Notes: generated from the sequence alone by a model not told the origin. DNA of 32,000 bases from Polynucleobacter sp. MWH-P3-07-1 (GCF_018687555.1 NZ_CP061296.1:1285983-1317982), one strand, 5' to 3'; numbered from the stretch's first letter, positions 17,491 to 32,000 are shown. Translations and numbers: made by a program.

Positions 17491-17518
17491 AAACCCTCAC
17501 CATTGCTGATGAGGGTTT
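17491..17518 (-). terminator. rho-independent terminator of the (now truncated) tRNA gene
   Basis: After ACCA the minus strand reads GAAACGC-AAACCCTCA-TCAGCAATGG-TGAGGGTTT-TGTCTTTTGG. Confidence 0.75.
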
Positions 17519-17525
17519 GCGTTTC

Positions 17526-17570
17526 TGGTGGGCCCACCAGGACTTGAACCTGGGACCAAAGGATTATGAG
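17526..17570 (-). pseudogene. 3' fragment of a tRNA(CAU) gene (anticodon loop to CCA), putative island att site
   Basis: The minus strand reads CTCATAA-TCCTT-TGGTC-CCAGG-TTCAAGT-CCTGG-TGGGCCC-A-CCA, giving the T-arm, acceptor 3' strand and CCA. Upstream sequence does not supply the complementary GGGCCCA acceptor strand, a D-arm, or the AAGGA anticodon-stem strand. Confidence 0.8.
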
Positions 17571-17627
17571 AGCAGAAGCCCATGATAGAACCATATAAAC
17601 AGGGGCTCTGCAGGTGGTCAGTGTCGG

Positions 17628-17651
17628 TGTGTAAGCAAATGTGTAAGCAAA
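17628..17651. repeat. perfect tandem 12-mer x2 (TGTGTAAGCAAA)
   Basis: Read directly from the sequence, about 58 nt inside the island from the att fragment. Confidence 0.6.
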
Positions 17652-17708
17652 TTCACTCATTTACTAGAAGAGCTAGCTCACTCTTTAGTTTTCAAAACCA
17701 AAGGATTT

Positions 17709-17741
17709 TTGGAGCAACCATCTAGCACTTCGTTGCTCCAA
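17709..17741 (-). terminator. hairpin downstream of the 279-aa gene
   Basis: TTGGAGCAAC / GTTGCTCCAA 10-bp stem with a 13-nt loop, 12 nt past the stop at 17753. No U-tract. Confidence 0.35.
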
Positions 17742-17752
17742 ACTCCTTCACA

Positions 17753-18592
17753 TTACACTTCGCCCTTTTCTTTTTGCTCCCTTCCCTCCAAAATCTTTGC
17801 CATACCTGGCGTCATGCTATCCCAACGCTCTTTGCGGGCCTCCATTGCCTTATCATGTAGCTTACTAACAAGTTCCTCTGCATTTTCTAAAGCACCAAGT
17901 TGATTACCAATTAACTGAATTGCACGATCATGAAATGCAGGATCGGCAGGAATATTGGCAATAACATAACGCATACCTTTACGCTTTATACATGCGTAAT
18001 ATTCAAAAGAAACATCTTTACGCTTGCTGAAATCTGTTGGAGATTCAAACACAGCAAAAGGTAACTCCTCGCGTGATAGACAATACTTCCAACCTAGGTC
18101 ATATTTAAATTGCTCAGACTCTTCCTGCTTGGCTTTCGTTGCTGGATCAACACCTAAAGAGCGTATGTTTTCTACTCCACCGCATTCTTGAACATAGTCC
18201 GTAAATTGCTCTACTGAGATTTGATTAGAGACAGCAGATTCAATCGCCCGGGCATAGACGTGAGCTGTTTTACGATCTGCGCGGGTGATATATCGAACTA
18301 ATACCGCAGTATCTGAGCTGTTTGATTGGACGCGAATCTTATAGCTATGAACTAGCTTGTGCTTCATATCACTGATCAAATCCTTTTTATCAGGGGCAGC
18401 ATCAAGCTGTTGATATAAAGTGAAAATCTTTGCAAGTAAATCATATAAAGCTAAACGTCCGCCAACAATATAGTTGGCATTAAATTGCTCATGCTCTTTT
18501 GCCAAATCATCAGCTTGGCTAATTAAGCTTTTGGTGATGACTGGCAGAGTACTTTTCTTAGTATTTTCTAATCTAATAATTTCTTTTTTCAT
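17753..18592 (-). CDS. hypothetical protein (279 aa)
   Basis: Long ORF in AT-rich DNA with an AAGGA Shine-Dalgarno upstream of the ATG. No domain recognised. Confidence 0.6.
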   Translation of the reverse strand: MKKEIIRLENTKKSTLPVITKSLISQADDLAKEHEQFNANYIVGGRLALYDLLAKIFTLYQQLDAAPDKKDLISDMKHKLVHSYKIRVQSNSSDTAVLVRYITRADRKTAHVYARAIESAVSNQISVEQFTDYVQECGGVENIRSLGVDPATKAKQEESEQFKYDLGWKYCLSREELPFAVFESPTDFSKRKDVSFEYYACIKRKGMRYVIANIPADPAFHDRAIQLIGNQLGALENAEELVSKLHDKAMEARKERWDSMTPGMAKILEGREQKEKGEV

Positions 18593-18613
18593 TTTTTCCT
18601 TGCTCTAACTACA

Positions 18614-18638
18614 CAGGCGTTACAACCTGTAACGCCTG
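18614..18638 (-). terminator. GC-rich intercistronic hairpin
   Basis: CAGGCGTTAC-AACCT-GTAACGCCTG, a perfect 10-bp stem between the 204-aa and 279-aa genes. No U-tract on the minus strand, so it could be an attenuator or processing site. Confidence 0.4.
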
Positions 18639-18650
18639 CATGTCTTTTTA

Positions 18651-19265
18651 TTAGTGAAATATAACTTTAGATAAATCTAAAAATTTCATTCCCAATTTTT
18701 CAGATGCATTTTTTCTCGCAATTTGTACTTTCTCATTACGCATGCACCAATTAAATTTCTTTTCGGCAACTTCTTCTATTGCATTAAAAGTCTTTAAATC
18801 AGCAATATCTAGATCAATGCCCTGCTTAACTTTATGCATTGCTTTATAAAAGGCCTCAATGCTACCTGCGCCTAACTTATCGGTTATATATGCACCAAAC
18901 TTATGTGCTGCAGTTTTTTCTTGATTTAAATTGATCATCATCTGTAAATGAATAACTAAACCATCCCTATCAATAAATTGCATTCCATACTTTTTACATG
19001 CTTTAAGTCTAGCCTTGGTTACAGCCGAATCTTTTAAACACATGCCATGCTTTTCATAAGTCAGCGCATCAATCTTATCTAGCACCTTCAAGTCATCTCT
19101 ACTCAAAGTAGCTTTATTCAATACCTTTCCAATAGCACGCGAATATATGTGTAATTCGGACTTCTCTAAAGAGCGAGTAATTGTTGTATTCACATCTAAT
19201 AAGTTTTGCCCACTGAACCTATCAATTACGTTGTTTAGTTTTACTTTTTCTTGAATAAATTGCAT
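18651..19265 (-). CDS. hypothetical protein (204 aa, internally duplicated)
   Basis: AGGAG Shine-Dalgarno upstream. The two halves align (see findings). Confidence 0.6.
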   Translation of the reverse strand: MQFIQEKVKLNNVIDRFSGQNLLDVNTTITRSLEKSELHIYSRAIGKVLNKATLSRDDLKVLDKIDALTYEKHGMCLKDSAVTKARLKACKKYGMQFIDRDGLVIHLQMMINLNQEKTAAHKFGAYITDKLGAGSIEAFYKAMHKVKQGIDLDIADLKTFNAIEEVAEKKFNWCMRNEKVQIARKNASEKLGMKFLDLSKVIFH

Positions 19266-19376: not shown

Positions 19377-20246
19377 ATGACAAATCGACAAAAATTACCC
19401 CGCTTTGAGTCTCAAGAAAGCCATTGGGAAGAAAGTGGCTTATTCGCTGCTAGTGACTGGCGTTATGACGCTTTAATTGATTACTTAAAACTCAGCCCCA
19501 GCTATCAGCTAGTTTGCGAATGGGCTAGGAAAGGTAAAAAAGCACTTCCGGCCAATGCTCCCAAAGACTGGCAGCAAATAGTTAAGACTTATGAAGATTT
19601 TGGGGATGTATGGCGTATTCCAGAAAGTCGCTGGTGGGACAGTCGCGGGAAAGCGCTATTTGGTATTAAAGCAGCCAAAGCTCAAACATTCGCCGTTGGA
19701 TATTCTGATGAAGCCACTCTTATTAATAGCAGCACAGCCACTCAATCACGGAACACATGGCAAGACATGGGCAAGCCAGAGTGCTTGGTACTAGCTATAC
19801 CAACCAATCAAACTAAACAAATGGCCCTAAAGCAAATTAATGCCATAGTTCGTGCTGGTAATTTTGTATGCACTAAACCAAAGTTAATTAGACCGAAATA
19901 TGAGCTAATACGCTCTAAGTTACGCGAGCCTACTATTAAGCTAGGCACTATTGCACTAAAGATGTACCAAAATGGTTACCCGCTTTGGCTTATTGGCACT
20001 AGACTTGAACTATCTCCTGCCCACCACATTAAATTAGATGATAAGGGAAATCCTGATCCCGGCGAACTCAATCTAGCTGATAAAAAAATACGTCTACAAA
20101 TCCTAGCGAGTAAATTGGTAGCTAAAGCAGAGCTGATTGCTGAAAATGCCGCACGTGGGCTCTACCCTACTGACGCTCCTTGTAGGTATGCCATGAAGTT
20201 TAAATCTGCAACCCGCAAAGTAGGCAGGCCCAGTAAATCTAAATAA
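19377..20246 (+). CDS. hypothetical protein (289 aa, basic C-terminal tail KSATRKVGRPSKSK)
   Basis: Long ORF in AT-rich DNA. The GRP-containing basic tail is AT-hook-like. No other domain recognised. Confidence 0.55.
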   Translation: MTNRQKLPRFESQESHWEESGLFAASDWRYDALIDYLKLSPSYQLVCEWARKGKKALPANAPKDWQQIVKTYEDFGDVWRIPESRWWDSRGKALFGIKAAKAQTFAVGYSDEATLINSSTATQSRNTWQDMGKPECLVLAIPTNQTKQMALKQINAIVRAGNFVCTKPKLIRPKYELIRSKLREPTIKLGTIALKMYQNGYPLWLIGTRLELSPAHHIKLDDKGNPDPGELNLADKKIRLQILASKLVAKAELIAENAARGLYPTDAPCRYAMKFKSATRKVGRPSKSK

Positions 20247-20811
20247 GCTCTACAGCTCTTCGCTTCATATCATCGTTCACATCAATATAAGCCTGCGTAG
20301 TGCTGATATTCTTATGACCTGCCAAGCTCATTAATACTCTCACCCCAATACCTTTACTTGCCAAGTTCGTAATAAAGCTTCTACGTCCACTGTGACTCGT
20401 GGCTCCTTCTATTTGGCATTGCCTATAGATGCCATTCATATGCTGAGTTAATGTATTAGCAGTAAAGCCTCTACGTGGAAACTTCTGGGTTGGAAAAAAG
20501 GCCCACTGGGGATCTCTGGTTTTTAGAGTATCTGCATAACCCTGTAATTCAACCCTCAACTTCTCATTCACAAATACAGTGCGAGCTATCGCACCTTTAG
20601 TCTGCTCAGCACTCAAGCGAATCTCGCTTTTCACCATCAAATTGGCGTCTAAAACGTCGCACATGCGTAGCGCAGCAACTTCACCCACTCTAAGTCCAGC
20701 CCAGTGGGTTAGCAGCAATATCGCCCTATTACGCTGGGCATGTTTAGATAGTTTTACGTAATCAAGTACTCGCTCTAATTCTTCAGCTTTAAATGTCTTT
20801 GCTTGTGCCAT
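20239..20811 (-). CDS. tyrosine recombinase/integrase, catalytic domain only (190 aa)
   Basis: AGGAG Shine-Dalgarno upstream. Catalytic residues are all present: R in AGLRVGE, K in EQTKG, H-x-x-R in SHSGRRSF, H in LAGHKNISTT and Y in TQAYIDV. Confidence 0.85.
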   Translation of the reverse strand: MAQAKTFKAEELERVLDYVKLSKHAQRNRAILLLTHWAGLRVGEVAALRMCDVLDANLMVKSEIRLSAEQTKGAIARTVFVNEKLRVELQGYADTLKTRDPQWAFFPTQKFPRRGFTANTLTQHMNGIYRQCQIEGATSHSGRRSFITNLASKGIGVRVLMSLAGHKNISTTQAYIDVNDDMKRRAVELI

Positions 20812-21012: not shown

Positions 21013-21486
21013 CTAAGGGATATTTGCCAACATTGGAAATGGCTGATGATCTGTCATACCACTTACATGCTCCATCCAAACTATCAATTTTTGTGAATCA
21101 GATAACTTACTATATGTATCAATTCCATCATAAACCTCATAATCTGTATAGCCAGGATCCTCAAAAGATCTTATGGCCCCATCATTTCCATTGCGAATTT
21201 CACGGAATATGATCTGGTACAAAAATTTATCGGAACCCATATCTCGATCTATCTTTCCGAAAAGGTCATCTAATTTGGCATGAAAGATTAAGTCTGCAAC
21301 TTTATCAAAATCTTTTTGATCGCTAATAGTTTTAAGCCAGTAATAGACCTCTAATCTTGTCATCTTATACACATAGTATGAAAAATCATTCCGATACAAA
21401 CCCTCCAAGAGTTTTTCTTGTGTTTTTAAAGCGCGATTAGACTCTGATGTTCCTACTTGAATTTTTGATTTTTTACTTGTCGCCAT
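21013..21486 (-). CDS. hypothetical protein (157 aa)
   Basis: The longest ORF at this locus, with AAAAGG upstream of the ATG. No domain recognised. Confidence 0.55.
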   Translation of the reverse strand: MATSKKSKIQVGTSESNRALKTQEKLLEGLYRNDFSYYVYKMTRLEVYYWLKTISDQKDFDKVADLIFHAKLDDLFGKIDRDMGSDKFLYQIIFREIRNGNDGAIRSFEDPGYTDYEVYDGIDTYSKLSDSQKLIVWMEHVSGMTDHQPFPMLANIP

Positions 21487-21632
21487 GATTACCTTTTTAT
21501 AGAAGGTGAACTGCGTTCACCCGTTCTTCGCTCGCGCTCATCACATTTATTCCGTTCTATATTACATAATAATCATGATTGGATCTATTGATTTATTGAC
21601 AAGATTGGTTGATAGATTCTTTAGTCAAACGA

Positions 21633-21663
21633 CGGCTATAGCACTAGGAAAGTACTATAGCCG
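21633..21663. other. strong hairpin in a 391-bp non-coding region
   Basis: CGGCTATAG / CTATAGCCG 9-bp stem plus an inner 3 bp (ACT/AGT), with a 5-nt loop. Confidence 0.5.
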
Positions 21664-21815
21664 CCGCTTCGTGTAGATTGGTCTGATGAGTTCCTCAGCA
21701 ACACGACTCTAAAAGAATTTATTGGAGACAGATGTATTAAAACTCCAAACCCTAAATAACAGGGAATTCTGCGGCCTACTTGTAGTGCATAACCTTTAGA
21801 GCATTTATGCCAAGT

Positions 21816-21853
21816 GCGGGCTCATTAGCCGACGTATTACAACCCGCGTTTTT
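21816..21853 (+). terminator. terminator-like hairpin plus T-run, with no upstream plus-strand ORF
   Basis: GCGGG...(inner GGCT-CATT-AGCC)...CCCGC followed by GTTTTTGCCGTTT. Confidence 0.35.
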
Positions 21854-21877
21854 GCCGTTTAAGGTGAGCTAACCTTA

Positions 21878-22183
21878 TTACCCCTGTTTTTGCCTATGTA
21901 ATTGCCTGCGTATCTTTTTATATAAATTGAGTACTTGGTACATGCGCTTTTGCGTAGCATTACTATTAAATGCCTGTATTAGTTCAGTTTGCTCTGACGT
22001 TAATAAATCCACACAATCAATCAATAACTGCTTACTAGCTGCCTTCGCCCTTATGTAATCAATCTCCAAATCTGGGCTAAAGAAAGTGCTTGGGTTATAC
22101 CCATTAGCCTTAAGCCAAGCATCTCTTAGCTTGATGTCTTTGATAGTCTGATAACTTTGCATACAGTTATTTATTAATACCAA
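21878..22183 (-). CDS. hypothetical protein (about 94-101 aa)
   Basis: The track start at 22183 is a TTG. The first ATG is at 22162 (MQSYQTIKD). No domain recognised. Confidence 0.5.
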   Translation of the reverse strand: MVLINNCMQSYQTIKDIKLRDAWLKANGYNPSTFFSPDLEIDYIRAKAASKQLLIDCVDLLTSEQTELIQAFNSNATQKRMYQVLNLYKKIRRQLHRQKQG

Positions 22184-22316: not shown

Positions 22317-22760
22317 ATGACAGCGCTTAGCAGCTTACAGCTAGTTAATAGTAAGAAGTCTTTAAAGGTTAGCCCAATCGTTCATAGACGCAATAAGTTG
22401 GTAGCCAAAATTCATGAGCAATTAGAGCTGTGTGAAGCAAAAATGAATGGGCAACTATATGCACCTAAAAAGCTACGTACATATATTAATAAACAAACTG
22501 GTGAGCGTATGACTGTGGAAGCTGTTAAACGGATTAAGGAATGGCACTGGACTACGCCCGATGGACTCATTCATTTGTCTGTCAAATACGGATCCAAAGT
22601 ATTGCCCTTATCAGCAGATGGTAGCAATGCCATTGTTTGCGCTAACAAGGATGCACTAGTGCAAGCTCTTAAGACATTAAAGGTTGCTGTGCTAGATGGG
22701 GAATTAGATACAGCTATTGCTGAAGCTAGCAGCTACACAAAATCTGGCTTTATCAAATGA
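22317..22760 (+). CDS. hypothetical protein (147 aa)
   Basis: AGGAG lies 6 nt upstream of the ATG. No domain recognised. Confidence 0.6.
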   Translation: MTALSSLQLVNSKKSLKVSPIVHRRNKLVAKIHEQLELCEAKMNGQLYAPKKLRTYINKQTGERMTVEAVKRIKEWHWTTPDGLIHLSVKYGSKVLPLSADGSNAIVCANKDALVQALKTLKVAVLDGELDTAIAEASSYTKSGFIK

Positions 22761-22865: not shown

Positions 22866-23333
22866 GTGCGCATATATGAAATTACCAACCCAGAAGATCA
22901 ACTGGCTTTACTGAAAATGATCATCGATAACACTTGGGCGGCCATTAGCAGAGAACAACAAACCAAAAAACCACTAGTCAAAGCTACTCCAGCGACTCCC
23001 CTTAAAAAAGGTGTAAAGCCTAAGGCTATTCCAAAGCCCAAAAAAGCTCCTTATGCTGCGACTCCAAAACCCTTAGCAAAACCTAATCCGGTATATCAAA
23101 CTCCAACACAAATACATCATCAACAACTCAAAACTAAGCAAGGCTATGCACAGGAGGTTGAAGGGACTTTTAATAAGGATGCCGTAAAAATGCCTAAGTC
23201 ATTGCAGCCCCTGCCAGGTAATATCATCAGCCCTATTGGTGGTGTTGATCCTGACTTTGAGAAGAAGATGCAGGACGCCCGAAATCAAGGCGAGCAAAAC
23301 CGCGCTAACGGGTCACTACCGCTGTCAAATTAA
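22866..23333 (+). CDS. hypothetical Pro/Lys-rich protein (155 aa, GTG start)
   Basis: TAGGAG lies 7 nt upstream of the GTG. The middle of the protein is low-complexity (KPKAIPKPKKAPYAATPKPLAKPNP). Confidence 0.55.
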   Translation: MRIYEITNPEDQLALLKMIIDNTWAAISREQQTKKPLVKATPATPLKKGVKPKAIPKPKKAPYAATPKPLAKPNPVYQTPTQIHHQQLKTKQGYAQEVEGTFNKDAVKMPKSLQPLPGNIISPIGGVDPDFEKKMQDARNQGEQNRANGSLPLSN

Positions 23334-23454: not shown

Positions 23455-24111
23455 ATGTCCAAAACCATTATTTTCGATACCGAAGCTACAGGTATTAAAG
23501 AACCCGTACTCATAGAAGCTGCTTGGGTTGAACTGGAGTCCTTATACCCATTCTCAATCACTAACCCCTTTGTCCAGCGTTATAACCCTGGTAAACCTAT
23601 TGCCTTAGGCGCACTAGCTACCCATCACATCATGGATGAGGAATTGGTTAATTGCCCACCAGCTGCTAGCTTTACCCTGCCTGGACACGTGGACTACATG
23701 ATTGGGCATAACGTGGACTTTGACTGGGAAGTAATTGGTAAACCTGATGTCAAACGTATCTGTACACTGGCACTTGCTCGCAAACTATGGCCAGACTTAG
23801 ATAACCATAATCAAAGCGCATTGATGTACTACTTAGAGCGCGATACAGCACGAGAGCAATTACGTAATGCTCACTCTGCTATTGCCGATGTGGGTATATG
23901 CGCCGTGATCCTAGATCACATTTGCCAAGAGCTAGGGGTAAAGACTATTGAAGATTTATATGCTGAATCTGAAAAGGCTAGAACCCCAACAACCATGCCA
24001 TTTGGTAAACATAAGGGCGTGTTGTTATCAGATGTTCCCAGCGACTATAAACAGTGGCTACTGACTCAAGGGGATATTGATCCGTATTTGAGAAAAGCTT
24101 TGGAGGTTTAA
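23455..24111 (+). CDS. DEDDh 3'-5' exonuclease, ExoX-like architecture
   Basis: 218 aa with Exo I IIFDTEATG, Exo II GHNVDFDW and Exo III HSAIADV. The C-terminal MPFGKHKGVLLSDVPSDYKQWLL resembles the ExoX C-terminal domain. Confidence 0.85.
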   Translation: MSKTIIFDTEATGIKEPVLIEAAWVELESLYPFSITNPFVQRYNPGKPIALGALATHHIMDEELVNCPPAASFTLPGHVDYMIGHNVDFDWEVIGKPDVKRICTLALARKLWPDLDNHNQSALMYYLERDTAREQLRNAHSAIADVGICAVILDHICQELGVKTIEDLYAESEKARTPTTMPFGKHKGVLLSDVPSDYKQWLLTQGDIDPYLRKALEV

Positions 24112-24112
24112 A

Positions 24113-24529
24113 TTAGCCAACAATGCCATCATTTGAATAAGGCTCGGGAATTATTAAATCTGGTATTGGCTCACCTAATGTTACAAGCCTCGGGGTGTGA
24201 AGATCATTCAAATCAAAAAATGAGTTTAGTAATCTAAAGCAATTAATTACCGAATGATGCGTTTGTATAGGTTCAATTTCTGGATGGGATATATTCCGGG
24301 TGCCAGAATATATCATTGAATAAATGTCGTATAGCCAGTTTGATACAAGTTCAGAATTACCCCCCAACGAACCAACCAATGCTTCTGGTGCAAAAAAATT
24401 ACTAGCGCCCTTTAGAATTTCCGAGGCGAGAGAAGTATCGCCATTCAATAAAGCCTCTTTACTCGCTTTTCCTACCCAATCCACAACTTTCAAATCATCC
24501 TCTTGACCCCAAAGCCAACTCCTACTCAT
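24113..24529 (-). CDS. hypothetical protein (138 aa) translationally coupled to zorD
   Basis: Its ATG overlaps the zorD stop (ATGA at 24526-24529). No domain recognised. Confidence 0.6.
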   Translation of the reverse strand: MSRSWLWGQEDDLKVVDWVGKASKEALLNGDTSLASEILKGASNFFAPEALVGSLGGNSELVSNWLYDIYSMIYSGTRNISHPEIEPIQTHHSVINCFRLLNSFFDLNDLHTPRLVTLGEPIPDLIIPEPYSNDGIVG

Positions 24530-27500
24530 ATATTCACCGAAGATTTAGACGTACTCATATAGAACTTAAAAATTTCTTCATCCAGAGTTAATTGCTTAAG
24601 CTGGACTTTATTCAACAATTCAATCAACTCAGCTCTTCCTATTAGCTTTACTCCAAGAGTGTTGGCCTGCTGAATTGCAGTTGCATTAAATTTCTTATTA
24701 GTAATTGCAGCCTTCTGGAATATTACGCCCGGATGCCTTGCCTGATAAGCCGGACTTCCAGCGGTAACTTCTTTGACTGCATCCCACCCTAGCTCATCTT
24801 GCGTGCTGTGTTTACACTGACCAATCATACCTTTGCCATCGATACCAATAACAACAATATCAATGCCGCCATCACCTCTTTGTTTTTGGGTAATGTAGGC
24901 TTTATTTGGATAGGCGCCAAATAGTAGCTGACAAAATACCTCAAATGTAGCCCCATCCAGAGTATCGACACGGTTTATATCAACCAACTTATCTGCATCA
25001 ACTTTAATTCCACCAGGGCCACTATCTGGCATTAATGTTCCGGATGGTATATCAGAACCCACCCCATCTAACATATCCCCAGCAAGATCCATCTTTAAAG
25101 TCATTAATCGATCTAACTTAGCGTCAAAGGTCACAAAGTCTTCAGCTGTGATAGTTGGGCAATAAACATATACATCCTTAGTCTGCCCAATACGATATGC
25201 CCTATCTGTTGCTTGGCCTTCTTTAGCCGGATTCCACGTTCTCGTGAAATGGATCACATGATTGGCTGAAACTATGTTTACTCCAAAGCCAACAGCCAAT
25301 GGAGAGAGAATGATTACGCCAAAACCGTCGCGTGATTGGAACGCATCAATTAAATCCTGTCGATCATCAATATCTCCATTAATGATCTGCGCTGAAAAAT
25401 CAAAGCGTTTACGTATAAACAGAACTAATGATCTTTGAATTTCCTTGATATCTGTAAATATGATCACTTTCTCTTGCTTTTGTGCAATCATTTCCAGCGT
25501 ACTCAATAACCACTTCAATTTAGGAGCATTATTTAAATGAGTGTCGACCCCATTTGTATCTATAGCAAAAGTGGTCTTTGGGAGACAATAGGGTTCGGAA
25601 CACAAAGCTCTTACAAAATGGAGAACTGCAAAAGAAATATTTGACCTTCTTCTTGCATCCTTTTCTTGAGCTGCTGCTGCAATTTGACGCAATCCCTGCG
25701 CATATAAATTTCTCTGATGATTTGAAATGGGAACAGATAACCTTTTCCTAAGAGCTCCATCAAACTCATATTCATCATTTGAAACTAATATCTTCTGAGG
25801 CAACTCATCAGCAATATCACTCTTCATTCTTCTTAAAATCTGAGGGCTAACTATTGCACGCAGATTTTCGATTACTTCTGCCGCCTTTTCATCGCCGGCT
25901 TCCTTAGCCTCAATCGGTTTTCTATATGTTCTACCGAATTCATCTAGAGCCCCAAGCAATCCAGGCTGTATAAAGTCAAACAAGCACCATAAATCTGCCA
26001 AACTGTTTTCTACAGGCGTTCCTGTGCAAGCAATTCTAAATTTAGCCTTCTGTTTTTTAGCCGCTGTTGTAGATTGTGCATTTGGCGTTTTAATTTTTTG
26101 AGCTTCATCACAAATCATGAACGTAAATTCTTGTCTAGCTAAACTAAACTCATAATCTCGTACAGTTTCATATGTAGTTAAGACCACCTTCGCAGAACCT
26201 AACCAATTTGGCGTTAATAGGTTTGCAATCTTCTTATCAAGTAATGACTGATCAATAAATTGCTTGGGCTGTCTTCTAGCACTTAACCCATCAGCATGAA
26301 GCAGCAATATCTCTGGAAAATTATTAAAAAAGTTCTTAGCTTCATTCTTCCAGTTTTGCATTAATACTGGAGGCGCAACAATTAATGAAGGCGGCGCCTC
26401 TGGATTGCGCTCATAAAACCAAGAAAGCAATGATAGAAGTTGTAATGTCTTTCCAAGCCCCATATCGTCAGCCAACAATGCACCTCGACAATATTCCGGA
26501 GCTTTTGAATACAAGTACTGCATCCAAGCTAATCCATCTAACTGATGTTTTTTTAACTTAATTTCACTCTTCAGATCAGTAGGTAGTTGAGGCGAAAAGC
26601 CTTCTGGCACTTTAAGTATTGCCGCACGCATTTCCTCTGCCGCAGTTTCACTATAGTCAAGCTGTGTAATATTTACTTTCACCAAGAGCGTCTCTTTGCG
26701 ACCTTTTCCTGGCGGGTTTGGACTTGGTGGAGTCGGGCCAGGTGGAGTCGGGCCTGGCGGGGTTGGACCTGGTGGAGTCGGGCCAGGTGGAGTCGGGCCA
26801 GGTGGAGTTGGGCCTGGCGGAGTTGGGCCAGGCGGCAGAGGATCACCCCCTGAACCAATAATCCCAAGCAAAACCTTTAGCTCTTTTACTAAATCAATAG
26901 CTTCAGGTATTGAAAGAGGAATTGGTAATCGGGGATCGGCAACTTTGTCGACACCTGCTGCCTTTGCCTGCTCAATCTTAGCCTCAAATTCCGTTACCCA
27001 TATTTCATCAACAGCTATAAAAACAGGTGCTGAGCCTGGAGTTAATGAAACACCGAGAAGCGGTGGCGCCCAAGAAGAGTCATCTCCACCCTCTTTTTTT
27101 ATGTAAGCTGAGTAGATGGGTTTTGCAACTCCAATACCATCAATTCGCCCACCATAATTATCGAGAGCATAAATGTCGTTAAAGTCTATGAAATTTTTTA
27201 CCTGATCTTTCCAAACATTGAACCAAACCTTAGCGCTATCCAATGTCTGATAAAGATCACCATCAACATCAATTACAAAATTACGCCAAGTAAAAAATTG
27301 ACGCTCTTCCGAGAGAGCCGATTCAATTTCTTGTATTAATAAGTTAAGCTCATGGGCAGTTGAAATAATTGATCTATCGGCCTTCGCCATCCCATCTTCA
27401 AGATTCTGATATATGGTTGCAGTAACACTTACAATGGTTCCTTTTTGTATGTCAGGAAAAAGCGTAATTCGAGTAGAGTAAATTCCAGCTTCTTCCTTAG

Positions 27501-28506
27501 CTTCTTGTATCTGCTTCTCATCTAAAACTTTGGAGGCAGCTTCACCAAGATAAGCGAAGGGATTTCTAAGAAATGCTTCGGCCTTACTACCAGCAACCTT
27601 ACGTCCATCAAATTGTGTTTTGATGACTGTAAGAACATCTCTAATCGCCTCAGGAAAGATAACTCTTGTTTTACCTGTTGCGGTTGGAAAATCACTATGT
27701 TCAGGGATGAATTTAAATGCATCAAACTGACCCATCCAATTATCAGGCGCTCCATCAAAATAGGGTTCGATTGTTACAACGCTAGTACCCAAGGCTTGCG
27801 CTCTGATATAACGCATCTTTAGCAGACTTGGGACCAAAACAATAGTTGAGAATAGGTATGGTGAAAGCTCCGCTTTTGCCAACAAGGCTAGTTTACGTGC
27901 TTCACCCCACAATATTTCATTATCAGATTGTGAGCGTGACTGGTCTTCAAATCCTTGATGGCGAGTAATAAAATCTATCAACTCCCAAGACTCTTTTGTT
28001 TGAAGTGAGTATGTTGAACCATCAACAAATGCGCCCCCAAGGCACTTTCTAAGCCTGATGCTACGACCTGAGGCTTCACGCCAACCATCAATTCGTAACC
28101 TGAAGAATTTATCCGCCACCGTTCCTACCTCACCAAGAACTGGAGATGATTTATCTATTTGTGGAAGTGATAACAAATATATGGAATCTTCGTGATCAAT
28201 ATCTGCTTCTAAGGCATAAAGATGAGCCCAAGAAATAACTACATCAGAACCATTGAGTATTGCAATCCCGTCGGAGACAAGCTGCGCTAAGTAGATTAAC
28301 TGCTGACTACCCTTAGCAGGATCAGTTGCAATATCCATCAGTTCGCTAGGTGTACTTAGGGCATTGTGTGCACCAGTAGAATATGAAACAGCATCATAAA
28401 AAAAACTAGGCTGAATTAAATTTTGAGAAGCAGGACTATTGCTCATCCCATCGAAAACATTTTTAACTTCAGGATGTGATTTAAAAAGTCTACTAAGAAA
28501 GTTCAT
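24526..28506 (-). CDS. zorD: ZorD-like SNF2-family helicase with C-terminal Mrr-type nuclease (1326 aa)
   Basis: SNF2 motifs LADDMGLGKT, DEAQKIK, TGTPVENSLADLW, GFGVNIVSANHVIHF and QATDRAYRIGQ. The C-terminus has GDGGIDIVV...GQCKH (Mrr_cat-like). Fourth gene after zorABC. Confidence 0.85.
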   Translation of the reverse strand: MNFLSRLFKSHPEVKNVFDGMSNSPASQNLIQPSFFYDAVSYSTGAHNALSTPSELMDIATDPAKGSQQLIYLAQLVSDGIAILNGSDVVISWAHLYALEADIDHEDSIYLLSLPQIDKSSPVLGEVGTVADKFFRLRIDGWREASGRSIRLRKCLGGAFVDGSTYSLQTKESWELIDFITRHQGFEDQSRSQSDNEILWGEARKLALLAKAELSPYLFSTIVLVPSLLKMRYIRAQALGTSVVTIEPYFDGAPDNWMGQFDAFKFIPEHSDFPTATGKTRVIFPEAIRDVLTVIKTQFDGRKVAGSKAEAFLRNPFAYLGEAASKVLDEKQIQEAKEEAGIYSTRITLFPDIQKGTIVSVTATIYQNLEDGMAKADRSIISTAHELNLLIQEIESALSEERQFFTWRNFVIDVDGDLYQTLDSAKVWFNVWKDQVKNFIDFNDIYALDNYGGRIDGIGVAKPIYSAYIKKEGGDDSSWAPPLLGVSLTPGSAPVFIAVDEIWVTEFEAKIEQAKAAGVDKVADPRLPIPLSIPEAIDLVKELKVLLGIIGSGGDPLPPGPTPPGPTPPGPTPPGPTPPGPTPPGPTPPGPTPPSPNPPGKGRKETLLVKVNITQLDYSETAAEEMRAAILKVPEGFSPQLPTDLKSEIKLKKHQLDGLAWMQYLYSKAPEYCRGALLADDMGLGKTLQLLSLLSWFYERNPEAPPSLIVAPPVLMQNWKNEAKNFFNNFPEILLLHADGLSARRQPKQFIDQSLLDKKIANLLTPNWLGSAKVVLTTYETVRDYEFSLARQEFTFMICDEAQKIKTPNAQSTTAAKKQKAKFRIACTGTPVENSLADLWCLFDFIQPGLLGALDEFGRTYRKPIEAKEAGDEKAAEVIENLRAIVSPQILRRMKSDIADELPQKILVSNDEYEFDGALRKRLSVPISNHQRNLYAQGLRQIAAAAQEKDARRRSNISFAVLHFVRALCSEPYCLPKTTFAIDTNGVDTHLNNAPKLKWLLSTLEMIAQKQEKVIIFTDIKEIQRSLVLFIRKRFDFSAQIINGDIDDRQDLIDAFQSRDGFGVIILSPLAVGFGVNIVSANHVIHFTRTWNPAKEGQATDRAYRIGQTKDVYVYCPTITAEDFVTFDAKLDRLMTLKMDLAGDMLDGVGSDIPSGTLMPDSGPGGIKVDADKLVDINRVDTLDGATFEVFCQLLFGAYPNKAYITQKQRGDGGIDIVVIGIDGKGMIGQCKHSTQDELGWDAVKEVTAGSPAYQARHPGVIFQKAAITNKKFNATAIQQANTLGVKLIGRAELIELLNKVQLKQLTLDEEIFKFYMSTSKSSVNI
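26710..26835 (-). repeat. in-frame tandem 15-bp repeat encoding (PPGPT)x7-PPSPN-PP
   Basis: Plus-strand units GGTGGAGTCGGGCCA with synonymous variants. Falls at residues 558-599 of ZorD, between the N-domain and the SNF2 domain. Confidence 0.9.
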
Positions 28507-29987
28507 TAGAAATATTTGTCAATTGAAAATGTGATTGTTCCTGAGCTCACTTTACCAGCTCGGACATCATCAAAGATGCCAAATGCAGGCAACTGATAGG
28601 TTCTAGCTTTATATTGCCATCCCTCTCTGTGCACAATGTCAGGACCTTTGGCGCTACCAGTGTAATAACGCTCTTTTAAACCTTTTGAGCTTGTAGATGC
28701 ATCAAGACTGACCGCATTTACATTAAATTTATTTTCCCCTTTTTGATAGATGTAGCATCCACCATGAGGATTGAACTCAACAATTAAATGTCCGCTGATT
28801 TCCATAATGAATGCATCTAGCGATGACTCACCTTTAGCGCCCATTAGATTGGCGTATGACTCGACATCATTTTTAAAGTGCTCTTTTAACTCTGGATGTG
28901 CCGTCAAATATCTGCGCATATCCTCACCCAACACAAGTCGGGTGAAGGTTATTTGATTTATATACTGCATCCAAAAATCAAGTCTTCCATGTGGATCCGG
29001 AACACCTCGGCGCTTGAGCAGTTCAAAGAATAGTCTGAGATTGGCTTCTTGCACCCACGTCAATACCATGCGCCATGTGGGATCCGATACATGGATCCAT
29101 TTTGAAGCTCCAGTATTCCGCAGCTTGGGGCTTTTCCAAGTCTCTAAAGCAAATTCTTTAAGTTCCCTGTGAACCCGTATATCTGAGGATGCCCTATACC
29201 TATCCAACAAGGCGCGCAAACCATTATCCAAATAGGATGGGTGTCGCCTCAACAAGGAAATAATTAGGGGTATAGATTCTTTAAACTTGGCATCAGATTG
29301 AGATAAAGAAGCTTTCAAGCAGGACTTAAAGAATTCCTCCCAAAACCAGCTTGCATCCGGAATATGCAACTCTTGTTTAATTTGCTTAACCCGAACCTCG
29401 CTACCAGCAAGCCACTCAGCACCATAAATCTCACATGGCGACTCTCCAAGTAAATGTTGGTTTGCCTCAATACTTTTCATCCAATTAGTTGAAAAGGTTG
29501 CATTCTTTTTTACATAAGGCCAAGTTTTAGCCAAGAAATTACGTATAGCCCGTTGGGAATTAAAAAAAGTATCACCCTCGTAATTTATCTTTTGTGCTTG
29601 AAAGTAAGATTGAAAAACTCCAAACCAAAAGATTCCATCAATCTTGTCATTCTCAAACTCAGTTGTATAACGATCGAAGAGAGTCCTTAGCTTTACACCA
29701 TCTGAGGCAACAGATATTCCACCTAATTCAGAAATGGGTTTTGTAAGAACAAATGAAATTATTTCGTACTCACCTACATCACCACTTAAGGAGCCATCAA
29801 GAAAACTGCGTGCCGCTGCATAAGCAACTTCATCCTTTGGCTTTAGAATAAAAGTAAATTCATCTGTTATTTTTTTATGAATCTTGGATAGCTTAGGATA
29901 GCTCTCACCACGATCACTTTTCAACTCAAATTGAAAAGTATTATTTAAATCAGCAAGAGAATTTTTTAGTAGGTTTGCGAAGGACAT
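28506..29987 (-). CDS. zorC: ZorC-position protein (493 aa, presumed EH-signature domain protein)
   Basis: Third gene of the operon. Its stop overlaps the zorD ATG (TAATG). The assignment rests on position and size, and I cannot verify the EH-signature profile by eye. Confidence 0.6.
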   Translation of the reverse strand: MSFANLLKNSLADLNNTFQFELKSDRGESYPKLSKIHKKITDEFTFILKPKDEVAYAAARSFLDGSLSGDVGEYEIISFVLTKPISELGGISVASDGVKLRTLFDRYTTEFENDKIDGIFWFGVFQSYFQAQKINYEGDTFFNSQRAIRNFLAKTWPYVKKNATFSTNWMKSIEANQHLLGESPCEIYGAEWLAGSEVRVKQIKQELHIPDASWFWEEFFKSCLKASLSQSDAKFKESIPLIISLLRRHPSYLDNGLRALLDRYRASSDIRVHRELKEFALETWKSPKLRNTGASKWIHVSDPTWRMVLTWVQEANLRLFFELLKRRGVPDPHGRLDFWMQYINQITFTRLVLGEDMRRYLTAHPELKEHFKNDVESYANLMGAKGESSLDAFIMEISGHLIVEFNPHGGCYIYQKGENKFNVNAVSLDASTSSKGLKERYYTGSAKGPDIVHREGWQYKARTYQLPAFGIFDDVRAGKVSSGTITFSIDKYF

Positions 29988-30715
29988 ACACCAAAATCTT
30001 TCCCCGATAAATCTATTGTTGACTCTTGTTGTCTCTTTTTATCGTCGCCTAATTGCCAGAATTCTAGCTTCAATTCCGCCCGTCTACTTTCTTCATCGCT
30101 TCTTTTTTGCGAATTGAAGGAGAACCCACCAACCAAGAAAAGTCTCTTCACTTGATTTTTTTCATCAAGAGATAAGCCACCTGAACCATCGGGGTCATTC
30201 TTTGCAAGCTCACAAACGACCTCCCTACTTCTTTTTAAAGAAAGATCAAGATTAGTCATATAGTTACCCGTTTTACTTGTGTATCCCTCAACAATTACAC
30301 GTCGAAAATAATCTTGACACTGATTTTCTTTAACTGTTTTTAATACGGCCGGGATATATTGTCGTAAAAATTTTGAAGCCTCTGGACTAATTTCATTGGA
30401 CTTTTCCTGGAATTTAACAATGGAACCCAGATCAATCCTTATTGCATCCCCTTTGTTGTATTCGATCTGGGCTTTTCCAGGAAATTCTTGATTTGCATTC
30501 TTCTGAAGTTTTTTAGCGCAGTCCGAGATTGATTGCTCCCTCTTGGCGGCAGCCTCGTATTCCGGAAGATATTTGGTCTTAATCATAATAATGTTGGCAG
30601 CCATGACCACTAAAAAAAGGGTCATACAAGCAGTCATCAGATCTGAATACGAAATCCAAAAAGGCTTTTCACCCTCATCCTTATATGACTTCTTAGAAGA
30701 TCTTTGATTAAACAT
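29966..30715 (-). CDS. zorB: ZorB-like MotB/OmpA-family protein (249 aa)
   Basis: MotB-type TM segment with Asp (FWISYSDLMTACMTLFLVVMA) and an OmpA-like C-terminus (VIVEGYTSKTGNYMTNLDLSLKRSREV). Confidence 0.8.
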   Translation of the reverse strand: MFNQRSSKKSYKDEGEKPFWISYSDLMTACMTLFLVVMAANIIMIKTKYLPEYEAAAKREQSISDCAKKLQKNANQEFPGKAQIEYNKGDAIRIDLGSIVKFQEKSNEISPEASKFLRQYIPAVLKTVKENQCQDYFRRVIVEGYTSKTGNYMTNLDLSLKRSREVVCELAKNDPDGSGGLSLDEKNQVKRLFLVGGFSFNSQKRSDEESRRAELKLEFWQLGDDKKRQQESTIDLSGKDFGVCPSQTY

Positions 30716-32000
30716 TATTCAGACTTCTTGAGCTTGGCAACCGACATCAACATTGACTGCACAGCACCCTCTAAGGCACTTAATGAGCCAGTGAGTAAGG
30801 TATCTGATGAAACTTTTAGCGCCTCAACCTGGGCAACCATTTCTTGTCCAAACTGCTGGAATGAGCCTTTGAGCACAGAATTAACTTGATTTAAATAATC
30901 AGTGCTTTGTTTTTCAGCGGCCTGCAATGAACCCAAAATTCTTTCTAAGTCAGAAAGCATTTGAGTACTTAGACCAGCCTCTTTTTTAGCATTTTCTACA
31001 AGGGTCTGCAGCTGTAGTACATAACCCTGAACAGATTCACGAGACTCATCATACTTCTCAAATGCCGTTCTTACCGATGAAGAAGCCATCTGAAGTGTGG
31101 AGGCTGTTTGCTCCAATTGATCCGTTACTACACGGCTCTTATCAAACACACCACCTATACTATCTCCAGCCTTAGAAAATCTATCCGCCGCATCTCGCAT
31201 CACAAGCGCACCGTCATTCATTCCTGAAATAGCGCCAGTTGCAGCATTCTGAATAGCTCTGATATTTTCTTCGGTCTTAAAGGCTGCGTTCTTTACGTCA
31301 GTCATTAACTGAACAACATTATCAGTTAATCCGCTATAAAGACCTTCTGTTTCTTCCACCAAACGATCTGCCCGCGCTTTATCGGCAATAGCTTGATTTT
31401 CCCTTTCGGCAGAAATTACAGAAATTGACTTTTCAAGCTCGGATAGAATATTTTGCATAGTCTCATCCATCGCCTGCTTAGTTTGATTTTGCTGCTCCAA
31501 AATTAAATTACGCAATTCCTCTACAAAACTTCGTAGCTGTTGATTCATCTGCTCTTGTGCAAGAGCAGCCTTGGACATTGACTCTTCCATCTTGGCTGAC
31601 ATTTCAGATGTAGCTTTTTGACCAGCACCTGAAATATCCGTAATTAATCGAGTCATTGCCTCCTGAACCATGGTCATCGAATCCGATGATTTCTGAATTG
31701 CAGTATTGATATTTTGAATTTGAGATCCAAAGGTCTCATCAATTTTTGCCATGAATGCGCTTAGCAAGTTCTCTAGCATACCGGTAACAGCGCCGCCCTG
31801 CTCTCCTGAAGCTCTGGCCACTACATCCATTAAATCCTTCATCGGAGCATCGAGGCTCTCTTTAATAGCGCCCGATACTTGCGATGAGAAGTTTTGTGCC
31901 GATTGAAGTTGAGCATTTATTTGCTTATCCGCTACCTCGTGCATTAACTGCTTTAAATCATCAATCAATGCATCTTTAAGACTTGCTGTATTGGCTGAAC
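30715..32000 (-). CDS. zorA: ZorA-like protein, C-terminal coiled-coil tail only (N-terminus beyond window)
   Basis: The frame stays open from 31968 to the window edge (..SANTASLKDA-LIDDLKQL..), so the TTG start in the track is an artefact. About 427 aa of helical Q/S/A/E/M-rich sequence with a single Pro. Its stop overlaps the zorB ATG (TAATG). Confidence 0.7.
   Translation of the reverse strand, partial: SANTASLKDALIDDLKQLMHEVADKQINAQLQSAQNFSSQVSGAIKESLDAPMKDLMDVVARASGEQGGAVTGMLENLLSAFMAKIDETFGSQIQNINTAIQKSSDSMTMVQEAMTRLITDISGAGQKATSEMSAKMEESMSKAALAQEQMNQQLRSFVEELRNLILEQQNQTKQAMDETMQNILSELEKSISVISAERENQAIADKARADRLVEETEGLYSGLTDNVVQLMTDVKNAAFKTEENIRAIQNAATGAISGMNDGALVMRDAADRFSKAGDSIGGVFDKSRVVTDQLEQTASTLQMASSSVRTAFEKYDESRESVQGYVLQLQTLVENAKKEAGLSTQMLSDLERILGSLQAAEKQSTDYLNQVNSVLKGSFQQFGQEMVAQVEALKVSSDTLLTGSLSALEGAVQSMLMSVAKLKKSE

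Follow-up and report, generated by a model that had tools for sequence, protein, structure and literature searches.

We analysed a 32,000-nucleotide (nt) stretch of DNA from Polynucleobacter sp. MWH-P3-07-1 (hereafter the window, at its full length), and found that its right-hand end, from position 24113 onwards, very likely carries a type I Zorya anti-phage operon with a presumed function in defence, located on an integrative island that was acquired horizontally. The genes follow the co-directional, contiguous order zorA-zorB-zorC-zorD and are succeeded by a small gene, here termed gene 5, that overlaps zorD and is presumably coupled to it in translation. On sequence comparison, the operon appears as a divergent lineage variant of the known system as opposed to a copy of the E. 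coli type, and it is probably functional. A search of a paper library found no paper mentioning both Polynucleobacter and Zorya.

The type I Zorya identity was proposed in an initial annotation of the sequence, and matches to PADLOC profiles, Pfam domains and E. coli structures agree on it. With the PADLOC profiles, the visible part of gene 1 matches ZorA1 (PDLC00598, 6.1e-124) over profile positions 238-662 of 663, gene 2 matches ZorB1 (1e-83), gene 3 matches ZorC1 (8.8e-102, ending at profile position 481 of 575) and gene 4 matches ZorD1 (PDLC00632, E-value of 0, 1271 bits) over residues 58-1156. All four proteins, taken from the window or from near-identical proxy contigs, match chains of the E. 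coli type I Zorya cryo-electron microscopy structures (8qyd_A, 8qyd_F, 8r68 and 8qy7). The Pfam profiles that had been put forward for genes 3 and 4 were likewise matched, with EH_Signature found on gene 3 and SNF2-rel_dom, Helicase_C and Mrr_cat on gene 4.

Five overlapping, co-directional minus-strand genes had been described in the initial annotation, and both their coordinates (Table 1) and all four overlaps were confirmed. Reading of the sequence places a TAATG overlap between zorA and zorB at 30713-30717, within TGAATAATG (minus strand, ...GAATAATGTTT), and a second between zorC and zorD at 28504-28508, within TTCTAATGA (minus strand, ...TTCTAATGAAC). The zorB and zorC frames overlap by 22 nt (29966-29987), while the junction of zorD and gene 5 reads ATATGAG, with an ATGA overlap at 24526-24529 (minus strand, ...ATATGAGT). 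zorA-zorB-zorC-zorD very likely form one minus-strand transcription unit; the frequency of promoter-like and terminator-like sites within the operon does not exceed that in shuffled sequence. The five-gene order was found again in independent contigs with differing flanks, and the ratio of non-synonymous to synonymous substitution rates (dN/dS) is 0.03-0.10 for zorA-D and 0.19-0.33 for gene 5. The recurrence and the low dN/dS together argue that the five-gene arrangement is not due to chance.

The visible part of ZorA corresponds to the long helical tail, of approximately 430 residues. It is nearly free of proline and rich in Q, S, A, E and M, as had been noted at the outset, with a single proline in 427 residues (A 11.5%, S 11.0%, L 9.8%, Q 9.1%, E 8.2%, M 5.2%, P 0.2%). 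The window ends short of approximately 237 N-terminal positions of the ZorA1 profile, which correspond to the 5' ~225 codons with the transmembrane (TM) segments. When ZorB was looked up by exact match, six metagenome contigs (L001-L006) were identified, with 99.8% identity to the window across the 5.2 kb that they share with it (26786-32000). The full-length ZorA encoded by these contigs comprises 652 amino acids (aa), differs at 2 positions from the 427 residues visible in the window, and contains three hydrophobic TM-like segments (1-31, 127-145 and 162-183); the L001 protein matches EcZorA (8qyd_A) from residue 26 (2.5e-79). The predicted MotA-like TM helices at the N-terminus of gene 1 are thus found by proxy, but not on DNA of this genome itself.

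ZorB consists of a MotB-like TM helix followed by an OmpA-like peptidoglycan-binding domain. Translation of the gene reveals FWISYSDLMTACMTLFL, with the MotB-type TM motif YSDLMTACMTLFL placing the conserved Asp at residue 25. The protein matches EcZorB (8qyd_F, 1.7e-40), with Asp25 aligned to EcZorB Asp26, and scores 25.3 bits with Pfam MotB_plug. Three of the four residues in the peptidoglycan-binding set of EcZorB (Y151, N152, L155 and R159) are kept, namely N152, L155 and R159.

ZorC carries the EH_Signature domain (PF15611, 1.6e-36, above the 27.5-bit cut-off) and matches 8r68 (1.5e-32). The equivalents of EcZorC D332, R335, W339 and E400 are conserved, the last of these lying in a VEF motif, and a conserved His is found in IVHREGW, aligned with ITH or IVH of relatives. 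While this bears out gene 3 as an EH-signature ZorC, the reading needs correction in that the C-terminal domain is absent. The protein ends approximately 13 residues past the EH core, and in an alignment with the 555-aa and 570-aa ZorC of the related loci L013 and L014 it lacks the last ~60-75 residues. Among the PADLOC ZorC1 profiles, several comprise no more than 432-467 positions, and ZorC of a further Zorya I locus, L141, matches one of these end to end. Because profiles of this length exist and are matched throughout, the short ZorC appears to be the normal state of the lineage and not a truncation. ZorC here presumably works without the domain that the E. coli protein needs for DNA binding.

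ZorD is made up of an N-terminal domain, a proline-rich linker, an SNF2 core (nt 25186-26547) and a C-terminal Mrr-type nuclease domain (nt 24613-24966). The full SNF2 motif set and the C-terminal Mrr-type module expected of gene 4 were both present: Pfam identifies SNF2-rel_dom (4.2e-52), Helicase_C (7.8e-13) and Mrr_cat (1.2e-08, residues 1181-1298), with GLGKT at residue 683, DEAQ at 800 and QATDR at 1098, and with the D...QxK motifs of the Mrr-type domain represented by DGGID at 1212 and GQCK at 1229. The match with EcZorD (8qy7, 3e-196) aligns the 1080-aa E. coli protein up to residue 1063 by means of window residues 617-1147, and ends before the Mrr region.

The linker, located between the N-terminal domain and the SNF2 core, is encoded by an in-frame tandem repeat. 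The L001 operon is otherwise identical at this position, with 3 PPGPT units compared with 7 in the window, an exact difference of 60 nt or four units. Among ZorD homologues with a linker that can be delimited, its length ranges from 33 to 64 aa and its proline content from 39 to 52%, with a PPxPx periodicity preserved while the units themselves change. The linker is absent from the ZorD proteins of L013, L014 and L141, and from ZorD relatives at 54% identity or less. According to Hu et al. 2024 (PMC11946911), the two halves of EcZorD contact each other and thereby autoinhibit the nuclease; for this reason, a variable and stiff spacer placed between the halves of ZorD is of mechanistic interest. 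On the opposite strand, a 136-aa open reading frame (ORF; 26696-27106, plus) with GGVGP repeats is the antisense of the PPGPT repeat and not a gene.

By analogy with the mechanism described for E. coli (Hu et al. 2024, PMC11946911; Mariano et al. 2025, PMC11890865), ZorA and ZorB would assemble into a ZorA5B2 (5:2) inner-membrane, proton-driven motor resembling MotAB. ZorB would contribute the ion-conducting Asp (Asp25 here) and the peptidoglycan-binding domain, and ZorA the long cytoplasmic helical tail. Envelope perturbation upon phage DNA injection would lead ZorB to engage peptidoglycan, anchoring the motor, and a signal would then pass along the ZorA tail. The EH-signature DNA binder ZorC and the SNF2 ATPase-nuclease ZorD, until then autoinhibited, would be recruited to the site and switched on there, such that incoming phage DNA is degraded in place and the cell is not killed.

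The protein encoded by gene 5 is identical (100%) to ICU98_06885 of Polynucleobacter sp. MWH-P3-07-1, and has no match in Pfam, NCBIfam, PADLOC or PHROGs. Homologues form 13 clusters among 5.8 billion proteins, and an exhaustive profile search yielded 8 hits among 1.84 billion representatives, all of 151 aa or less and none of them a fusion. The protein is acidic (isoelectric point 4.6; 4.2-5.8 across the family). An AlphaFold2 model (predicted local distance difference test score of 78.8) predicts a four-helix bundle with an extended conserved tail, DLIIPEPY. Foldseek found no match to this model with E≤0.001 in the PDB or BFVD; the best matches (designed helical repeats in the PDB, E 0.26; E 2.1 in BFVD) were rejected as uninformative. 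Given 32 invariant columns among 13 sequences, with W7, W65, F104-N108 and the LIxPE tail among the invariant residues, and the dN/dS of 0.19-0.33, gene 5 can be considered a real gene, which by these measures is constrained but evolves several times faster than its neighbours.

In every genomic context that could be examined, members of the family were seen only directly after zorD. Gene 5 begins at the zorD stop codon in L001-L005 and in L007-L012, in spite of differing flanks. The most distant member, P0020, was recovered at 8.7e-4 in the library-wide search. It is related to the gene 5 family with an hhalign probability of 96% (28% identity over 131 columns), and has in common with it the MSRS..W start, the F.DLN.L motif and the LI(I/L)PEP tail. 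P0020 and its relatives start 26 nt past zorD in L137, L138 and L141. The last of these is a complete Zorya I (ZorA PDLC00600; ZorB 00612; ZorC 00619, 437 aa; ZorD 00629, 1042 aa), with a ZorD that contains neither an Mrr domain nor a proline linker and is 32% identical to that of the window. The family thus appears to track zorD across two distant Zorya I lineages, which makes a dedicated role more likely than that of a chance neighbour. Gene 5 is not present in L015 (ZorD 69% identical), L013, L014 or L016, nor in the Zorya I loci of a Klebsiella IncR plasmid and a Nitrosospira plasmid. A scan of genome contigs with ZorC yielded one locus, L012, and the wider diversity of loci was sampled by way of ZorD homologues.

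Of the roles that the gene 5 protein may have, we consider that of a ZorD-associated accessory or adaptor subunit the most likely, with about even confidence. Tentatively, and with a little less than even confidence, we propose that some type I Zorya systems possess a fifth, previously undescribed component encoded by gene 5: an acidic four-helix bundle with a (D/E)LI(I/L)PEP(Y/F) tail, made in step with ZorD, that would serve the ZorC/ZorD effector stage as adaptor or regulator, with the PPxPx linker as a second, fast-evolving tuning element of effector activation. One possibility is that gene 5 substitutes for the missing C-terminal domain of ZorC, an idea prompted by the short ZorC present in both gene 5 lineages. 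This correspondence is suggestive, but involves only two lineages and has a counter-example in L015. Three more specific roles were considered and set aside. Gene 5 as a detached ZorC C-terminal domain was rejected at the sequence level, with an hhalign probability below 1% against the corresponding domains of L013 and L014. An immunity-like inhibitor of the ZorD Mrr domain is unlikely, as homologues follow an Mrr-less ZorD in L137 and L141. Binding of gene 5 to the proline linker is not supported, as gene 5 occurs without the linker in L141, and a P/G-rich linker without gene 5 in L015.

A number of observations weigh against the account given above. The NCBIfam equivalogs for ZorA1, ZorB1, ZorC and ZorD are the top matches, but all score below the strict cut-offs (358 bits vs 750, 188 vs 400, 180 vs 490 and 863 vs 1500, respectively), and it is for this reason that we call the lineage divergent from the E. 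coli/Klebsiella type; the NCBIfam 'subfamily' model for ZorA, NF033916, was passed (370 bits vs 250). The NCBIfam cut-offs define E. coli/Klebsiella-like equivalogs for naming purposes, and not the Zorya I class of Doron 2018 or of PADLOC. The 5' end of zorA lies outside the window, and its TM region is deduced from near-identical contigs. The OmpA domain expected on gene 2 scores 26.9 bits with Pfam, 0.3 below the cut-off of 27.2, and the peptidoglycan-binding Y151 of EcZorB is replaced by Thr. ZorC is devoid of the C-terminal globular domain of EcZorC. Finally, L015 combines the same short ZorC with the absence of gene 5, and the role proposed for gene 5 is argued from synteny throughout. 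Taken at their strongest, the unreached NCBIfam cut-offs and the short ZorC would describe a decayed relic, no longer defending owing to the loss of an essential domain: ZorC ends approximately 95 profile positions early, without the C-terminal domain of L013, L014 and EcZorC, the deletion of which abolishes DNA binding and defence in E. coli according to Hu et al. 2024 (PMC11946911). We nevertheless regard a relic as very improbable, since all five ORFs are intact with their overlaps kept across at least six independent loci, the dN/dS of 0.03-0.10 indicates strong purifying selection, and the short PADLOC ZorC1 profiles and L141 show a ZorC of this length to be normal. Hardly credible, in turn, is a reading in which the stator pair serves motility or energises the envelope, in the manner of MotAB, ExbBD or TolQR, with the helicase as an independent gene of the restriction or Dpd/DISARM type. 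ZorB does match MotB family models weakly, and ZorD matches the PADLOC DpdE (4.9e-198) and DrmD profiles via the shared SNF2 core. The MotB family models reach only 15-30 bits against cut-offs of at least 250, far below the scores of the ZorA1 and ZorB1 profiles, and gene 1 carries the Zorya-specific tail of ~430 residues. The DpdE profile covers the SNF2 core only (residues 634-1147), whereas ZorD1 extends over the ZorD-specific N-terminal domain (58-1156), and NCBIfam DpdE scores 25 bits against a cut-off of 500. Furthermore, the four genes overlap as one unit, and the window ORFs examined yielded neither flagellar nor TonB domains, nor any partner genes of Dpd or DISARM.

It is quite possible, if on the whole somewhat doubtful, that gene 5 has no connection with the system, being a hitchhiker or an island gene that happens to adjoin zorD, in which case the unit would be a plain four-gene Zorya I. 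This would fit with a protein that has no domain, fold or family match, that evolves 4-6 times faster than zorA-D, and that is absent from L015, L013, L014, L016 and the Klebsiella and Nitrosospira Zorya I plasmids. A hitchhiker would not, however, be expected to lie immediately 3' of zorD on the same strand in all members whose context can be examined, with differing flanks and a conserved 4-nt ATGA overlap, nor to have a remote subfamily (96% hhalign probability, 28% identity) behind a ZorD that is only 32% identical and belongs to a Zorya I of different PADLOC subfamilies; outside this context, no member of the family was found. Should gene 5 encode a true subunit, then PADLOC, DefenseFinder and NCBI, all of which define the system by four genes, overlook one of its components in these lineages.

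The operon-bearing island extends from 17571 to beyond 32000, and thus over at least 14.4 kb. A 'tRNA-linked island' had been proposed, and this stands in so far as a 45-nt 3' remnant of tRNA-Met marks the island edge, whereas no intact tRNA gene was found in the window by ARAGORN or by Rfam at gathering thresholds, a permissive Rfam scan yielding only a partial tRNA match of 16.8 bits. The remnant reads CTCATAATCCTTTGGTCCCAGGTTCAAGTCCTGGTGGGCCCACCA on the minus strand, and corresponds exactly to positions 33-77 of intact 77-nt tRNA-Met genes in the freshwater metagenome contigs L017, L041, L060, L076, L082 and L088. Towards the core, a terminator-like hairpin (17494-17515) comes next, and then a cupin gene. 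Left of 17.4 kb, all genes have ordinary core functions (cytochrome bd oxidase, permeases, major facilitator superfamily transporter, cupin), in keeping with the statement that there is no flagellar or TonB context. From 18 kb rightwards, the G+C content (GC) falls from ~0.43-0.48 to 0.36-0.44. The 45-mer occurs in more than 120 freshwater metagenome contigs, and twice in four of them as direct repeats 1-10.7 kb apart; L127 and L022 have the same core flank at 98% identity and other DNA past the remnant. We therefore interpret the remnant as the displaced 3' half of a tRNA at one end of a tRNA-Met-integrating element, and the tRNA-Met site as an integration hotspot for an element family with variable cargo. 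The intact tRNA-Met would then lie at the far end of the island, outside the window. On the island side of the remnant is a conserved arm, of which the tandem elements are possibly recombinase arm sites. The first 120 nt of remnant and arm (17526-17645) are 95% identical to Ferrovum L007:16564-16683, and the arm is 77-93% identical in many metagenome contigs carrying the tRNA-Met remnant.

Three lines of evidence support the horizontal acquisition that had been suggested: the remnant at the island edge, a related operon in Ferrovum and a near-identical operon in another island. Ferrovum sp. PN-J185 (L007) shares the operon at 85% DNA identity over 7.9 kb despite belonging to a different order, and also has the DUF6641 gene, the 190-aa tyrosine recombinase and the 289-aa ORF found at 19.3-22.8 kb of the window. 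In L001, the near-identical operon resides in a different island, 3.4 kb from the gene for a 421-aa integrase and with tRNA-Val nearby, and homology with the window ends at 23461. The pair formed by the recombinase gene and the 289-aa ORF is kept in the Ferrovum island at ~70% DNA identity, and may represent a recombinase with its partner or directionality factor.

The remaining island cargo comprises five ORFs (279, 204, 157, 101 and 155 aa; 17753-19265 minus, 21013-22183 minus and 22866-23333 plus) of low GC (0.36-0.39), none of which has a significant match in Pfam, PADLOC or PHROGs; the 101-aa ORF gave a marginal phrog_21778 match (E 0.009) with no passing stretch. Among the island ORFs from 17.7 to 24.1 kb, the search for a second defence system with PADLOC returned the DEDDh exonuclease only. 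This exonuclease gene and gene 5 converge, their stop codons separated by 1 nt. A DEDDh-like gene also abuts gene 5 in L010 and L011; it is reduced to a fragment in L001 and absent in the Ferrovum contig L007 and in L008. Upstream of zorA, both L001 (6814-7889) and L007 (618-1693) contain a divergent pair of ORFs of 157 and 201 aa (87% and 61% identity) without Pfam or PADLOC matches, the 201-aa protein having a hydrophobic N-terminal region; the pair is absent in L008 and L010. Defence-type neighbours were seen at related Zorya I loci (L008/L009 10552-16555; L013 1-2930; L014 487-2394 and 15547-18339; L141 18367-20417), comprising across these loci a NERD/UvrD-like helicase with a DUF2779 protein, a HinfI-type restriction-modification pair, an SbcC-like ATPase, GmrSD, and Eco57I-like and MmeI-like enzymes. 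This is consistent with a defence-island context of related Zorya I loci elsewhere.

Table 1 Features of the operon and of the island (positions in the window).
Feature	Position	Strand	Remarks
zorA (gene 1), 3' part	30715 to beyond 32000	minus	427 codons + stop visible; frame open to window edge, starts at 31998 (ORF scan)
zorB (gene 2)	29966-30715	minus	249 aa (ORF scan)
zorC (gene 3)	28506-29987	minus	493 aa (ORF scan)
zorD (gene 4)	24526-28506	minus	1326 aa (ORF scan)
Gene 5	24113-24529	minus	138 aa; ATG overlaps zorD stop (ORF scan)
(PPGPT)x7 linker, in-frame 15-nt tandem repeat in zorD	26708-26832	minus	Tandem Repeats Finder: period 15, 7.1 copies
tRNA-Met(CAT), 3' 45 nt, anticodon loop to CCA	17526-17570	minus	Attachment (att)-type remnant, left island edge; exact match to intact genes
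Conserved island-end arm, ~175 nt	17571-17745		Includes tandem ATTTGCTTACAC x2
Tyrosine recombinase, 190 aa, catalytic domain only	20239-20811	minus	Pfam Phage_integrase 1.2e-22; phrog_216 integrase 6.8e-40
289-aa ORF, no family match	19377-20246	plus	Converges on recombinase gene, 8-nt overlap
DEDDh/RNase_T-type exonuclease	23455-24111	plus	C-terminal QSregVF_b motif; PADLOC DEDDh 3e-22; phrog_192 4e-51
DUF6641-family ORF	22317-22760	plus	2e-09; phrog_31551 1.8e-15; also in Ferrovum island

Zorya I is an already defined system with a mechanism worked out in E. coli, and the main contribution of the present locus is a divergent example from a freshwater betaproteobacterium, located on a mobile island. 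What makes it valuable is natural variation bearing on the step that is least understood, the recruitment of ZorC and ZorD and the release of ZorD from autoinhibition, with the variation of note being a ZorC without its C-terminal domain, a polyproline-like ZorD spacer of varying length and an orphan protein that tracks zorD in two lineages. The interest of the locus is modest, with gene 5 as its main source.

When compared with the E. coli type I Zorya (EcZorI; PDB codes 8qyd, 8r68 and 8qy7), the four-gene order is the same. ZorA has three TM-like segments (in the proxy contigs) and a long tail, ZorB the Asp and the peptidoglycan-binding domain, the EH core of ZorC keeps the D/R/W/E network, and ZorD keeps the N-terminal domain and the SNF2 core with DEAQ. 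The differences are a low sequence identity, a shorter ZorA (652 aa by proxy vs 729), the ZorC without a C-terminal globular domain, and a longer ZorD (1326 aa vs 1080) with an added Mrr_cat domain and the PPGPT-repeat linker. The annotated Klebsiella Zorya I (NCBI names ZorA1, ZorB1, ZorC and ZorD) has no gene coupled downstream of zorD, in contrast to the fifth gene found here. The 5:2 motors MotAB and ExbBD/TolQR share with this locus a MotB-like TM helix with Asp, an OmpA-like domain and a MotA/ExbB-type membrane partner; what sets the locus apart from them is the long ZorA tail, the lack of a flagellar or TonB context and the coupling to nuclease and helicase effectors.

An SNF2 core with a C-terminal Mrr-like nuclease is also found in the Mrr-bearing ZorD1 variants of PADLOC (PDLC00628, 00630 and 00631), which align through the Mrr region up to ZorD residue ~1304-1310. 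Mrr-bearing ZorD is said to form part of the 2018 domain description of type I Zorya by Doron and colleagues. In the Mrr-bearing relatives, from Paraburkholderia (L014) and the Nitrosospira plasmid, ZorC is long and includes the C-terminal domain, while both the proline-repeat linker and gene 5 are absent. L141, from the metagenome-assembled genome GCA_947380975.1, resembles the window in having zorA-B-C-D followed by a same-strand member of the gene 5 family, together with a short ZorC of 437 aa. It differs in that all four PADLOC subfamilies are distinct, the 1042-aa ZorD is without Mrr domain or proline linker, and the gene 5 homologue is located 26 nt past zorD, whereas gene 5 overlaps zorD in the window.

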